From NCBI RefSeq assembly GCF_030013595.1, contig NZ_CP122768.1: DNA of 64,000 nt. One strand, 5' to 3'. This DNA comes from Escherichia coli. GTDB lineage: Bacteria > Pseudomonadota > Gammaproteobacteria > Enterobacterales > Enterobacteriaceae. Made by a program: the position numbers. This document shows positions 33,001 to 39,000 of the stretch, piece after piece (positions within the stretch are counted from its first letter, which is position 1; every line of letters starts with the position of its first letter).

Positions 33001-36000
33001 CCGGATTGGAGCAATTGCCTTTACCCAGCAACCCGATATTGACCGGCAGGCTGTCTGCAGCCTGCAGCATTTGATAAATGTACCATGGTCCTGGGGTACA
33101 GGTTGTGGCGTTAGAACCCGCTGTCGGGCCAGTACCGCCACCGATCATGGTGGTAATGCCGGATGTCAGCGCTTCTTCAGCCTGCTGTGGGCAGATCCAG
33201 TGAATATGCGTATCGACGCCACCTGCGGTAACGATCCTGCCTTCTGCGGCAATAATTTCCGTGGATACGCCGATTGGGATAGTGACGTTGGGTTGTATAT
33301 CAGGATTACCGGCTTTGCCGATAGCAAATATCCTTCCATCTTTGACGCCGATATCGGCTTTAACGATCCCCCAGTAATCGATGATCAGGGCATTGGTCAG
33401 CACCAGATCAGCGCAGCCGGCGGAGAGCATTTGCCCCTGTCCCATACCGTCGCGGATTACTTTACCGCCGCCGAATTTGACCTCTTCGCCGTAGGTAGTT
33501 AAATCATCTTCGACCTCGATCCACAGCTCAGTGTCTGCCAGACGAATTTTATCACCGGTGGTAGGGCCGAACATGTCAGCATAGGCCTGGCGTGAAATAT
33601 TACTCATCATTTGCCTCCAGCTCACCCATTATATCTCCGCGGAAACCGTGCACGATACGGGCACCGCTCAGCGCCACCAGTTCAACCTCACGCTTTTGGC
33701 CTGGTTCGAAGCGCACTGCAGTTCCGGCGGCGATATTGAGACGATAGCCTCTTGCCTTCTGGCGATCGAACTTCAGTGCCGGGTTAACCTCCGCGAAGTG
33801 ATAATGGGAACCGACCTGAATTGGTCGGTCTCCGTGATTTTCAACGATAATACTGCAGGTAGCCCGGCCGATGTTAAGCTCTATATAGCCAGGTTTAACC
33901 TTATATTCTCCAGGGATCATCTGTTACCTCAGATTATCGGATTATGGACGGTAACCAGCTTGGAGCCGTCCGGAAAGGTGGCTTCGACCTGGATATCGGG
34001 GATCATTTCTGGTATGCCTTCCATGACCTGCTCGCGACTCAGGACATGCCGTCCTTCTTCCATCAGCGCAGCGACGCTTTTGCCGTCGCGAGCGCCCTCC
34101 ATTATAAAAGCGCTAATCAGGGCCACGGATTCGGGATAGTTAAGTTTCAGGCCGCGGGCCAGACGACGCTCTGCCAGCAGTGCAGCGGTAAACAGTAATA
34201 GTTTGTCTTTTTCTCTTGGAGTCAGTTCCATAGCGTTCTCTTAAGTCAGCCAGATCCGGGGAAGTACCGGTGATTTGTCAGTCAGTTGCGGCCGCATAAA
34301 TTGCCAGATATCACGCATTACCTGCTGGCAACGCAGATTATCATCACTTAAAAAGCGAACTGTCAGTAGACCATCGGTGAGCGTGGCTCCGGCGTAGTTT
34401 TCCAGTGGTGTGAGTTTTTCGCGTATGTCTTCCAGTTGCGTTTCATTCCCCAGGTAGAACAGCATCGTTCCCACCCATGGTTTCCGGGCAACGCAGGTAA
34501 GTTCTCCATTGGCCACGTGCAGACGCTCAATCAACAGCGGAGAACCGTCGACCCATATCTCCAGACGGTTAGCGAGTGTTCCGTGGCTGAAGGTTTCTCC
34601 GATGACCGGACGTCCAAGGCACAGAAGATCCCAGGCCAGCAGTGTACTGGAGGACGACAGATGAAACACGGTATGCAACGTGGCGTGAGCGCCGGGAAAA
34701 AAAATCGAATCCTGTGGCAACCACTCCAGCGTTGCGTTATTGCACAGCGTCAGGTTTTGCTGAAGGTGCGCCTGCGCGCCGCTGCTGCGGTAAAATTTAC
34801 TGGCACCAGGCATGGTGATCAGCGTATGGCAATCAGAGTCAATTATTGCGTTGATGATGAGTTCGTCACCGCCGACGATACCACCGGGTGGATGAAGCAG
34901 ACAGAGGTGGCAGGTTTCTTCTTCGGGATAAAAAGGACGCTGAACAGTGAGCGGACCGACATGATGACGGGTGGTGAGCGTGGTTTTCCCGTGCAGACGC
35001 TGAAAACGGAGATCCAGCATGGCCTGCCAGCCTTTTTTATTTTGTGGTAACGCGGTACTGAGCAATCTTACGCCCCTGATAAATAAAGATAAAACGACAG
35101 TAAAGAGCCGGATTTCCTTGTTATATAAAAGATGATGCCTTTCCAGTGAGTTTTCGTCTGAATAATACGAATGTTTGTTTTCGTCATGAAGCGTTCCGGC
35201 TCCCGGGGCTATACATCGCCAGAAAAGCAATGCATATTGTCGGGATTATCCAGAGAATCAGGCAGAAAGATCCGACAATGGGCTGTGATTATGCCATCTG
35301 GCTCAGAATGATATCAAGGTGTTATGGGGATAACTTGCTGATACAATAGCAGTATGACAGATTCATTAATGCGGAAACTGCTCACTGAAACAGAGTGTTC
35401 ATGACTGAGCACTGGTCGGGTCATGCAGATGATAATTTCCCCTTTTCTTGGGGAAGCGACAGTATTTTCATGCATGCCTGTCTTCAGTCATACGGGGAGA
35501 GCATCTGTGATACAGTCCATACATTTGTTGCGGACGTCGCTCCTGAGTCACTGACTGGTCTGCAAACAGTTTATCTGTACACGGCAGGGCTTCTGTGTGA
35601 TATCGTTTTTCATATCGAGGGGGGGCCTCCAGAGATGAATGGAATAATAATATTTCCTGATGATATAATACCTTAGAGAATTTCTGTGTATGCTATTGTG
35701 AACATATTTTTTATTAAAAAGATGTTAGTGGTGTTGTAAAATAAAAGAATCAGTAACTATAAACGCCTTTATTGACATAAAGTTTTGATGATGAAGTTGA
35801 AGTTTGACCTGGTATAAATCAGTATTCACTTTACCAGGTTTTATAAAAATATATCACTTTTAGATACGGACAATTATAGACTCTAATTAATGGGGGGTAA
35901 GATGATTAAAAAAATCAGTATTAATTTTCTTTTCTTGATGTTAATGATAGATGTTGTTTTTGCCACATTGTTCAATATCCCTGTCTGGATGCATCTGTTT

Positions 36001-39000
36001 AATATTATTAATAACCTTGATGGTGTGAAACTTGGATTTATTATATCTCTTCCAGTCTTTCTGATATCTGCATTAAATTTTGTTTTTACACCGTTCTCAT
36101 TCAGGTATATATTTAAACCTTTTTTTTGTATTCTGTTTATCTGTAGTTCCATTGTTACATATGCCACCATGAAATATGGTGTGCAGTTTGATAAAACAAT
36201 GATGCAGAATATTTTTGAAACAAATGCAGGTGAAATGACATCATATTTCAATATGTCTGTTGTACTGTGGTTTTTATTTACGGGTATACTTCCATGTGGA
36301 CTATTGTTGTTAGTAAATATCCGTTATCCTGAGACATGGATAAAGGGTATTATATATCGTTTAATATCAATGTTTGCATCTCTCTTGATTATATTTGCGA
36401 TTGCGTTTTTCTTTTATAAGGATTATGCATCAGTTGGCAGAAACAACTCTTCATTAAATAAAGAAATAATACCTACTAATTATATCTACAGTGGGTTTAA
36501 ATATGTAAGGGATTTTTTTGTTTCTCCTGGCGAGTTTCGTCAGACTGGAACGGATGCATCCCGCACAATAAATGAAAAACAAAAGCCGGTAATTATGTTT
36601 TTAGTTGTCGGGGAGACAGCAAGAAGTCAAAACTATGCTCTGAATGGATATTCTCGTGGTACCAATGATTTTACAAAGAAATATAATGAACTTATATCCT
36701 TTCATAATGTGCAGTCGTGTGGCACATCCACAGCCATATCTGTTCCATGCATGTTTTCAGATATGAAGCGAAAAGAGTTCAATTCCCGCAAAGCGGTAAA
36801 TTCGGAAAATGTACTGGATATTCTGTACAGAACGGGGGTAAATTTACTCTGGATTGAAAATGACGGGGGATGTAAAGGTGTATGTAAGCGAATCCCTACA
36901 ATTAATATTGAGCCATCAAATTCAGATAATACATTATGCAAGAAAAACTCATGTTATGATGAGGTTATGCTAAAAAATATTGATGAGTATATAAATAATA
37001 ACTCAGAGGATAAACTTATCGTATTTCATTTGATGGGTAGTCATGGTCCTACCTACTATCTCCGTTATCCTGAGTCACATAAATATTTTAAACCAACATG
37101 TGATCGTAGTGATATCGAAAATTGTACGCATGAGCAATTGATTAATACCTATGATAATACAATTCGCTATACTGATTATATAATATCAAAATTAATTGAC
37201 AAGCTTATCGAATATAAAGATGAGTATGATACTGTTTTATTATATGTCTCTGACCATGGAGAATCTCTGGGAGAAAATGGATTATACTTACATGGAACAC
37301 CATATAATGTTGCTCCAGCTGAGCAAACGCATGTGCCTCTTATTACCTGGATGTCTCCGGGGTTCGTTTCCTCTAAAAAAATTGATTTGAATTGTTTGTC
37401 AGAACATGCTCTAAACAGAACAGTAAGTCATGATAATATATTTTCATCGTTACTGGGGTTATGGAATGTAAATACTTCAGTTTATAATAAAGAAGATGAT
37501 ATTATATCCTCCTGCAGATAGATACTGACATTTTTCTGAGGATAAGAGGTGAATACCTCTTATCCTTAAGTAAATATTAACCAGGTAACTGTGAATAATT
37601 TAGATGTTGGGCGTTATGAAAGTAATAAAACTCCCCATATAATGATAGCAACTAAAATCGTAATCAACACTGCGGCTGAACCCATATCTTTTGCTCTGCC
37701 TGATAATTCGTGATGTTCTGAACCAATTCTGTCAACAACTGCTTCAATTGCACTGTTAATTATTTCAACAATAATTACCATCATTGCCGAACCAATGAGT
37801 AATACTCGAGTAACAGAGTCAACATCCAGCCAAAAGGATATTATCAGTGCTGACAGAACCAGAATGCACTCCTGACGAAAGGCTGCTTCATAGCGCCATG
37901 CCGCACATAAGCCTTTCCATGAATAACCCGCTGCTTTAATAATTCTGGTAACACCAGTGGTCGTATTAGCCATAAATACCTCTTATTTAATTATATGTCT
38001 GAATATGCATTATAAAATATCAGTTAACATTAACAGGATTTTGTAATAAGCCACATTTATTCTTTCGGGAATTAAAAAACATAACGAAATTTTGCCTCAT
38101 TCTGCATTTCATTGAAATAGTATGTTTCTCATCGAAAGCAAGTTTGTCAATATAAATTTGTAACAGAAATGACTTTCCGGGGATAAACAAAACTGTTCAT
38201 GGCAATGGCTTTCTCTGTCGCCAACATGGATACATTGTTCCGGATAAAGCACTGATGTCATTGACTGACGCAGACTATCAGGCCATCTGATGCTTTCTTT
38301 TCCTTCACCGGTATTGATGATATGCCTTATGAAGGGGGACTTATTCCTGTAACCCAATCACAGGCACTGTGATTACTGGTTTATGATTGATGCTGATTTG
38401 AGCAGATATGCACAGCAGTTGTGGATTCAGGGGATATTTTCTGCCAGATATTCATACCAGATTGATGACCTCTTTGCTCAGATGCTCTTCGTTCTGAGCC
38501 AGCCAGGATTTTGTGGCCACATACATTGTTCGCCGATGGGGAATCGAGACAGGCGATTGGCTGTGATGCGATTTTGCCGCTAACTGAGGATGAGTCCGCC
38601 CCTCCCGGGGAATTCCTGTAAGTTAAGCCGTACCTGTTGATTAGCACTAAACTGGGTAATGAATTTATCTGCCAGTATGAATGATGCCGGGGACGGTTTT
38701 GAACTCCTGATGTCGGGTAATATGCAGGATTTTAATATTTGTTGTCGTCGGGATAATCATTATCCTGAACATAAACTGATACCTTTATCAGAGTTATTTG
38801 ACGTTAATTATGGACTGAATCTTGAGCTGAATAAACTGGAGAAAGATTCTTCAGGAATTAATTTTGTTTCAAGAACGTCCAAAAATAATGGCGTCTCCGC
38901 CAGGGTTAAATTAAAAGATGGTATTAGTCCATGCCAGCAGCTGTGTTAACTGTAGCAGCAGGAGGTTCTGTTATGGAATCGTTTGTACAGGATTCACCAT

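Follow-up and report, generated by a model that had tools for sequence, protein, structure and literature searches.

Phosphoethanolamine (PEtN) transferases of the EptA/MCR family are in some systems linked to a gene for diacylglycerol kinase (dgkA), and a pair of this kind, ept-dgkA, lies on a genomic island in the 64,000-nucleotide stretch of contig NZ_CP122768.1 of Escherichia coli (assembly GCF_030013595.1) that was analysed here and is called the window throughout. PEtN transfer releases diacylglycerol, which is recycled by DgkA (PMC7559476), and the same rationale has been given for other PEtN transferases (Purcell et al., 2022, as cited in PMC12064563), so that this element of a preliminary description of the locus can be regarded as established. 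In the mcr-3-dgkA cassette, of Aeromonas origin, a transferase of the same broad clade as Ept, the product of ept (54.4% identity), is likewise linked to dgkA with the same recycling rationale (PMC7559476). However, its dgkA follows on the same strand after about 120 bp, whereas ept and dgkA are convergent with a hairpin between them, and mcr-3 confers resistance, whereas Z1140, the counterpart of ept in O157:H7, did not in the published tests. In Vibrio (Harveyi clade) a dgkA-eptA operon likewise links the two genes, and eptA alone is silent in E. coli (PMC12064563); in Vibrio and Photobacterium dgkA lies upstream on the same strand and is co-transcribed under the two-component system RstAB, whereas no regulator adjoins ept-dgkA, and the EptA proteins are about 48-50% identical to Ept. 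The closest named family is formed by the mobile, Buttiauxella-derived MCR-9 and MCR-10, which have the same 539-amino-acid (aa) length and catalytic residues as Ept. MCR-9, like Z1140, causes little or no change in minimum inhibitory concentration (MIC) on its own (PMC11656738; PMC7559476). In contrast to Ept, MCR-9 and MCR-10 have no linked dgkA (PMC7559476 and our comparison of the loci), and mcr-9 has a GC content of about 45% and is plasmid-borne on IncHI2, whereas ept has 33% GC and is part of a chromosomal island. Finally, E. coli EptA (PmrC) shares family, fold and catalytic residues with Ept at 40% identity, but its gene has a PmrA box and forms an operon with basRS, whereas the island ept has neither a PmrA box nor basRS downstream.

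The ept-dgkA pair is already known: it is annotated, it figures in published MCR phylogenies and its transferase has been tested. It is the Z1140/Z1139 pair of the tellurite-resistance/urease/iha island (OI-43/48 type) of Shiga toxin-producing E. coli (STEC) and some other E. coli. In E. coli it is phenotypically silent for colistin and does not work as a resistance determinant. The explanation that we favour, with a probability of roughly 0.6, is that Ept is an MCR-9-like enzyme of weak activity or poor expression, encoded in AT-rich DNA outside PmrA control.

Identity and distribution of the ept-dgkA locus

A megablast search with positions 35700-38100 of the window recovered this 2.4-kb block from 573 of 5426 complete E. 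coli genomes at ≥95% identity, and from 572 at ≥99%. The carriers include O157:H7, O103, O111 and others, the distribution is patchy, and throughout the block matches the RefSeq annotation reads ‘phosphoethanolamine transferase’ and ‘diacylglycerol kinase’. Ept (WP_000591995.1) is identical in 538 of its 539 residues to Z1140 of O157:H7 EDL933 (AAG55285; WP_000591997.1), the only difference being I151T, with I151 in the window and T151 in the EDL933 protein that was tested. An exact 81-mer around codon 151 occurs in 219 of the 573 records, the other 354 differing from it by at least one base. The gene order in EDL933 is the same (traT, two hypothetical genes, dgkA, ept, a hypothetical gene, ureD) and the DgkA proteins are identical; dgkA would, judging from this order, be Z1139, as Z1140 is the transferase and Z1142 is ureD.

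A 1620-bp gene called ‘PEA1’ and described as most similar to mcr-3 has been reported in O157 (PMC6408774); the PEA1 of strain NADC 6564 is presumably the same gene as Z1140. WP_000591995.1 is also included in the supplementary data of Gaballa et al. (2023; PMC10285318). The adjacent dgkA is not mentioned in the available parts of the papers on Z1140 or PEA1, and a literature search for Z1139, Z1578/9 and ECs1318-1320 returned nothing relevant. The petB and petC genes of PMC11656738 were considered as possible counterparts of ept and rejected, as they are Pseudomonas genes.

Affiliation and integrity of the two enzymes

The open reading frames (ORFs), Pfam and NCBIfam all agree with the earlier claim of a 539-aa EptA/MCR-type transferase convergent with dgkA. 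Ept contains the EptA_B_N domain (PF08019; residues 54-203, 6.9e-49) followed by the Sulfatase domain (PF00884; residues 233-522, 7.6e-65), has five hydrophobic segments and matches the structure of NmEptA (PDB 5fgn) over its full length (1.6e-129), i.e., it has the expected architecture of an N-terminal five-helix membrane domain and a periplasmic domain of the sulfatase fold. NCBIfam profile scores were judged against the curated cut-off of each model. MCR-9 scored best (778 bits, 4e-234, far beyond chance) but below its cut-off of 1240, and the same holds for MCR-3-broad (760 bits; cut-off 1075), MCR-13 (757; 1250), MCR-10 (753; 1250), MCR-3 (703; 1225), MCR-7 (670; 1250), MCR-4 (511; 1225), MCR-8 (482; 1250) and MCR-1 (330; 1100). 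The generic model for lipid A PEtN transferases (NF028537) was passed with 636.8 bits (cut-off 500), whereas the equivalog for EptA of the E. coli/Salmonella type (PmrC; NF008619) was missed (606.6 bits; cut-off 660). Pairwise identities to Ept are 59.4% for MCR-9.1, 58.1% for MCR-10.1, 54.4% for MCR-3.1, 43% for both MCR-4.6 and MCR-8.1, and 36-37% for MCR-1.1 and MCR-5.1; among the K-12 proteins they are 40.2% for EptA, which confirms the divergence from the chromosomal enzyme noticed before, 21.7% for EptB, 19.3% for EptC and 19.5% for OpgE. Ept is thus not a member of the named families MCR-3, -7, -9, -10 or -13, no family cut-off being reached and the best identity being 59.4%, nor is it carried on plasmids or transposons as the named MCRs are, since 585 of the 586 places where it was found are chromosomal, on an integrase-bearing genomic island.

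In a neighbour-joining tree (30 sequences, 524 columns, 200 bootstraps, own distance code; support is quoted for shallow nodes only) Ept nests within the MCR-3/-9/-10 group, while EptB, EptC and OpgE fall outside the EptA/MCR clade. A grouping with OpgE or EptB, which the preliminary description had named as speaking against its proposal, did therefore not occur. These comparisons support the view that Ept is a horizontally acquired EptA/MCR-type enzyme of the MCR-3/-9/-10 group, predicted to act on lipid A, and not one of the EptB/EptC/OpgE type. The absent colistin phenotype would also be explained if Ept transferred PEtN to an acceptor other than the lipid A phosphates, such as a core sugar, a glucan or a surface protein. 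Enzymes of this kind are known from the wider family (K-12 EptB, EptC/CptA and OpgE), and the absence of resistance in the published tests fits this as well. To our knowledge, the acceptor-binding determinants of the EptA/MCR family are poorly defined, which leaves some room for such an acceptor. However, Ept lies deep inside the lipid A EptA/MCR clade (about 59% identity to MCR-9.1 vs 19-22% to EptB, EptC and OpgE), its scores with the EptB (160 bits; cut-off 493) and CptA (116 bits; cut-off 404) models are far too low, and the cut-off of the lipid A transferase model is passed; a different acceptor is, therefore, very unlikely.

The nearest relatives of Ept are other accessory genes of E. 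coli. Its sister in the tree is an accessory transferase (P0002 type) that is 63% identical, with 98% bootstrap support, and the next branch is a third one (P0006 type), located on an integrative and conjugative element (ICE), with a weak support of 52%. These two further lineages of the same clade (retrieved loci L003, 4067-5747, and L004, 6001-7620) are 60-63% identical to Ept: the P0002 type has 547 aa and is found beside an invasin/intimin-like gene, the P0006 type has 539 aa and adjoins a phage-type integrase on an ICE-like element, and neither has a linked dgkA. All three genes have a GC content of 33-34% and a GC content at third codon positions (GC3) of about 0.285, and this shared, odd composition suggests a common low-GC source. 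A search among 5.8 billion proteins revealed no relative of Ept between 63 and 99% identity, and none above 59% came up when genomes from 100,044 species were scanned by a pattern-based approach; the donor of the ept lineage is unsampled.

All four motifs quoted previously as catalytic and metal-binding signatures were indeed found, VGETAR at residue 236, SCGTSTA at 272, HLMGSHGP (HxxGxHGP) at 376 and DHGESLGENGLYLHG at 451. The 14 positions known from work on MCR-1 and EptA to bind Zn, to act as nucleophile or to line the phosphatidylethanolamine (PE) cavity are all kept. N103, T107, E111, E238, T277, K325, H376, H381, D451, H452, E454 and H464 are conserved (N108, T112, E116, E246, T285, K333, H390, H395, D465, H466, E468 and H478 in MCR-1), and D321 and G322 match MCR-3, MCR-9 and EptA, the positions that differ from MCR-1 having the residues of these enzymes. 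All 68 columns that are invariant across 25 family members are also kept in Ept, as are the ten invariant periplasmic Cys residues. Where the 14 nearest relatives are invariant, Ept deviates only by the conservative changes A112M, L231I, T350S and R394K, and positions 112, 350 and 394 are variable in the wider family according to PDB alignments. An inactivating substitution as the cause of the published negative result was sought in the Ept sequence and none was found; I151T is also an unlikely cause, since residue 151 is freely variable across the family (I, L, A, V, G, S, M or F). The gene is an intact coding sequence with no pseudogene flag in the six of six annotated records inspected. An allele comparison of ept gave four synonymous and three non-synonymous codon differences, whereas dgkA was identical in the three alleles compared. 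Judged by these features, the ept sequence is unlike that of a dead gene.

The published view of Z1140 is nevertheless that of a non-functional enzyme, and Ept could be a degenerating relic, a folded protein that has lost catalytic competence and is carried passively by the island. This would be in line with the decay of its neighbours (a frameshifted hsdS, a truncated traT and remnants of insertion sequences, IS) and with the inactivity of a hybrid of the MCR-1 membrane domain and the Z1140 catalytic domain (PMC5983563 S2 Fig). This hybrid is, however, uninformative, because swaps of domains between MCR-1 and MCR-3-type enzymes are inactive even where both parents work (PMC6116419), and the activity data on Z1140 were published as ‘not shown’. 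Moreover, with the invariant columns, the metal, nucleophile and PE-cavity residues and the ten Cys all kept, there is no visible lesion; the coding sequence is intact in all records inspected, dgkA does not vary among the alleles compared, and the 2.4-kb block has remained at least 95% identical in 573 genomes despite its decayed neighbours. We consider a relic unlikely.

The neighbouring gene codes for a bona fide diacylglycerol kinase, as had been stated. The product matches DAGK_prokar (PF01219) with 2.9e-36 over model positions 1-102 of 102 and E. coli DgkA structures in PDB with 2.3e-51, has three hydrophobic segments and is 76.5% identical to K-12 DgkA. The catalytic core VEIxNSAIEAVVDRIGSExHELSGRAKDMGSAAV is identical to that of K-12, including the R, K, E, E, N, E, K and D positions. 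Its identity to the characterised E. coli enzyme makes it likely that the Z1139 kinase would phosphorylate diacylglycerol. The closest non-self relatives are chromosomal DgkAs of Enterobacterales (72-78%), whereas the identity to the DgkAs linked to mcr-3, to Aeromonas PEtN transferases and to Photobacterium/Vibrio eptA is 52-62% (58% for the one linked to mcr-3). At the nucleotide level, the island dgkA is 70% identical to K-12 dgkA overall and 43% at third positions. It is an old paralogue of the enterobacterial chromosomal type and not a recent duplicate.

In order to place this linkage, 80 loci of related transferases were surveyed for dgkA within 4 kb. A linked dgkA was present in eight of these, co-directional in all eight and convergent in none: in five Aeromonas loci it follows the transferase gene on the same strand, as does the dgkA of mcr-3.1 plasmids, and in three Photobacterium/Vibrio loci it is upstream, again on the same strand. 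The statement that mcr-3 is linked to dgkA in the same way has, consequently, to be corrected, as the genes are co-directional there and convergent here and the DgkA is of a different lineage. Since the island DgkA is 58% identical to the mcr-3-linked one as opposed to 76.5% to K-12 DgkA, the linkage is an independent case of a recurrent association and not a copy of the mcr-3 cassette.

Colistin silence and its explanation

Z1140 (539 aa, AAG55285) has been used by one laboratory in four papers as outgroup or reference, designated ‘non-functional PE transferase’ (PMC5983563; PMC6116419; PMC6347640; PMC5893884). Arabinose-induced expression of Z1140 from pBAD24 in MG1655 gave no colistin resistance (<0.5 ug/ml; PMC6116419 Fig. 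S9; PMC5983563 S2 Fig; PMC5893884; PMC6347640), and Z1140 had ‘no detectable role in trials of enzymatic activity’ (data not shown; PMC5893884). EDL933 itself is colistin-susceptible (PMC6116419 Fig. S9; PMC5983563 S2 Fig), with a MIC of 0.41 ug/ml reported for EDL933 and Sakai (PMC6408774). An unchanged polymyxin MIC, which the preliminary description had given as an outcome that would speak against its proposal, is thus largely what has been published, for the transferase alone. A hybrid of the Z1140 membrane domain with the MCR-3 catalytic domain was active (8 ug/ml; PMC6116419), and the membrane domain of Z1140 is, therefore, functional.

The gene was cloned alone and as the T151 allele (PMC5983563; PMC6116419), and no report was found in which Z1140 had been combined with its own dgkA, or in which its effect on lipid A had been assayed by mass spectrometry alongside controls of its expression. 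This would be compatible with a cryptic module for resistance to polymyxins or cationic peptides, in which Ept modifies lipid A and resistance appears only together with its own DgkA or upon a signal that induces or de-represses the AT-rich promoter. The active site of Ept is intact, and every carrier has kept, next to ept, an intact and dedicated dgkA that has a Shine-Dalgarno sequence of its own. There are also precedents, as Vibrio eptA-1 alone confers no resistance in E. coli while dgkA-eptA-1 gives a MIC of >16 ug/ml (PMC12064563), and mcr-3 and dgkA together give maximal resistance (PMC7559476). On the other hand, EDL933 possesses both genes and is colistin-susceptible (PMC6116419 Fig. 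S9; PMC6408774), and the DgkA of MG1655 (76.5% identical) suffices for the function of MCR-1 and MCR-3 in E. coli (PMC7559476). Furthermore, there is neither a PmrA box nor an adjacent regulator, and I151T is unlikely to matter, position 151 being variable across the family. We consider a cryptic resistance module of this kind unlikely. If it did exist, about 10% of the complete E. coli genomes, mostly STEC, would carry a latent mcr-like determinant, which would belong to a low-GC sub-lineage with two other accessory PEtN transferases of E. coli and an unsampled donor.

The upstream PmrA box that was to be looked for according to the preliminary description is absent: a search for YTTAAK-N5-YTTAAK with at most two mismatches in 35231-35901 gave no hit, whereas the same pattern found perfect boxes upstream of K-12 eptA and pmrR, which served as positive control. 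PmrA control of ept is, therefore, rejected. In the window as a whole the pattern gave 73 matches vs 57±8 expected, i.e., not above chance, and the one near-perfect match (37565-37581) is located in the convergent spacer, inside the hairpin. The annotation of the window shows no regulator gene or two-component system adjacent to ept-dgkA.

This brings us back to Ept as a weak or poorly expressed, MCR-9-like enzyme. By homology, Thr277, activated by the Zn site E238/D451/H452 with H381/H464, would take PEtN from PE, and Ept, in the inner membrane, would pass it to a lipid A phosphate by ping-pong transfer, releasing diacylglycerol that DgkA would re-phosphorylate to phosphatidic acid. We favour this explanation because there is a precedent for lipid A modification that leaves the MIC unaffected: the Pseudomonas PET-C modifies the 4'-phosphate of lipid A without MIC change (PMC11656738). 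By analogy with MCR-9 also, an unchanged MIC does not exclude that lipid A is modified. Of the proposal in the preliminary description that the pair may be an accessory module for lipid A modification and polymyxin resistance, the modification is predicted from the family assignment and the intact catalytic apparatus, while the resistance runs counter to the published negative for Z1140 alone and to the susceptibility of EDL933.

Several points weigh against the explanation preferred here. The published negative for Z1140, taken at face value, argues for an inactive rather than a weak protein, and the available parts of the four papers contain no mention of expression controls for it. The acceptor specificity of Ept is not readable from its sequence, lipid A being the predicted acceptor. 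The selection test within E. coli comprised only seven differing codons, too few to demonstrate purifying selection. Upstream DNA of 30% GC would be a typical target of H-NS, and in view of this AT-richness ept may be silenced by H-NS.

As it stands, the locus adds little, being a well-annotated accessory pair with a transferase published as giving no colistin resistance. Still, about a tenth of the sequenced E. coli retain an enzyme of the MCR-3/-9 clade that looks flawless, together with a private DgkA, without measurable effect. If activity of Ept were shown, this would be of relevance to the surveillance of colistin resistance in STEC and to the recruitment of mcr-like genes.

Layout of the locus and island context

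Table 1. Positions of ept, dgkA and accompanying features in the 64,000-nucleotide window.
Feature	Position	Strand	Description
ept	35902..37521	+	539-aa EptA/MCR-family PEtN transferase; RefSeq WP_000591995.1; Z1140 type, I151 allele
dgkA	37614..37973	-	119-aa prokaryotic diacylglycerol kinase paralogue; RefSeq WP_000024297.1; Z1139 by gene order
Intergenic hairpin	37537..37568	no strand	Perfect 14-bp stem, GAGGATAAGAGGT GAAT ACCTCTTATCCTT; from inverted-repeat search and folding
ept upstream region	35677..35901	+	AT-rich, about 30% GC; Shine-Dalgarno G-run 35892-35897; inverted repeat
dgkA upstream region	37974..38200	-	Shine-Dalgarno AAGAGG 37979-37984; -10 hexamer TATAAT 38009-38014
Tyrosine integrase	53724-54926		Abuts core genes clpA/macB
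Frameshifted gene	38659-39224		Two overlapping ORFs (96 and 97 aa), GC 37-41%
traT region	39272-40742		traT ORF overlapping the end of an IS600-family transposase remnant
PrimPol-helicase gene	44338-46722		794-aa protein
RtT-like RNA element	55144-55278		48.5 bits
CRISPR-DR4 repeat	55381-55408		Single type I-F repeat, 50.1 bits

The stop codons of ept and dgkA face each other at a distance of 92 bp (Table 1). An alternative in-frame ATG of ept at 35890 would add four residues (543 aa), but the G-rich Shine-Dalgarno sequence (GGGGGG) precedes only the ATG at 35902, which is also the RefSeq start. The GC content is 32.8% for ept (GC3 28.5%) and 40.0% for dgkA (GC3 30.0%), compared with 52-54% (GC3 52-57%) for the adjacent ureDABC genes and 47.9% for the whole window. 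This bears out the earlier observation of low-GC DNA (33-40%) on a mobile island, here the integrase-bearing ter/ure/iha island. The near-equal GC3 of the two genes (about 0.29-0.30) suggests that they arrived jointly from one low-GC donor. No transposon-like boundaries of the low-GC block were found, short repeats occurring at chance level only, and no IS elements directly bracket the pair.

Upstream of ept only weak sigma-70 matches are present. An inverted repeat of 8-9 bp (ACCTGGTA-N17-TACCAGGT), followed by TTTTATAAAAA, occurs at about 35806-35840, some 60 nt before the start of ept; it might serve as an operator or form an attenuator-like hairpin. The predicted fold of the 5' untranslated region was no better than that of shuffled sequences (z = +0.5). 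On the opposite strand, AAGAGG precedes the ATG of dgkA by 5 nt and a perfect TATAAT lies 36 nt upstream, as read from the sequence; these candidate promoter matches at consensus level point to dgkA as a transcription unit of its own. Between the genes, the hairpin dominates both the minimum free energy and the centroid fold of 37505-37630 (z = -2.6). A scan called no intrinsic terminator between ept and dgkA, and the hairpin lacks a U-tract on either strand; it may be a candidate two-way transcription stop or a stabiliser of 3' ends. An exact 12-nt direct repeat, AATACCTCTTAT, brackets dgkA (37552-37563 and 37975-37986), with one copy in the right arm of the hairpin and the other immediately before the start of dgkA, the complement of this second copy providing the Shine-Dalgarno sequence; this is probably a coincidence in AT-rich DNA.

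The island in the window contains a gene for an iha-type TonB receptor, terC and ter-associated genes, copies of IS66/IS682 and ureDABCEFG, and beyond ept-dgkA a frameshifted hsdS, a traT remnant, IS600/IS30 remnants and a PrimPol-helicase gene. The two overlapping ORFs at 38659-39224 are one frameshifted gene, annotated in CFSAN004176 as ‘restriction endonuclease subunit S, frameshifted’, and this region may form one low-GC segment together with ept-dgkA. The traT ORF next to it (complement-resistance lipoprotein, 437 bits vs a cut-off of 445) is annotated as truncated in several strains, and in ETEC1746 and EDL933 a second traT fragment is found across the ure operon. The ure-ept-dgkA segment thus seems to have entered a region that formerly contained traT, or to have been rearranged within it. 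The 794-aa protein combines an archaeo-eukaryotic primase (PrimPol) with a superfamily-2 helicase, and is named ‘TOTE conflict system archaeo-eukaryotic primase domain-containing protein’ in RefSeq; the next gene is an inovirus-type Gp2 gene, and together they are possibly a defence or satellite-like module in the island.

Compared with E. coli ETEC1746 (NZ_CP122727.1), the window is 99.8-100% identical over three long blocks and has two extra segments (26701-27466 and 41177-43619), the latter with an ORF of 512 aa (42043-43581) that probably codes for a transposase of the IS66 family, like the one in plasmid pB39_V; the window is therefore from another strain than ETEC1746. In PLSDB, three ‘plasmid’ records hold a protein at least 99% identical to Ept. 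One of these, NZ_OQ420472.1 (260 kb, ‘non-mobilizable’, E. coli), comprises the whole island as well as chromosomal genes such as ycdU, and because of the latter a fragment of a chromosome or a misassembly is more probable than a true plasmid.

An island beside clpA would be expected at serW; ARAGORN found no tRNA genes in the window. The stretch between the integrase and clpA contains the RtT-like RNA element and the single CRISPR-DR4 repeat, and this lone repeat may be a remnant of a CRISPR near clpA.

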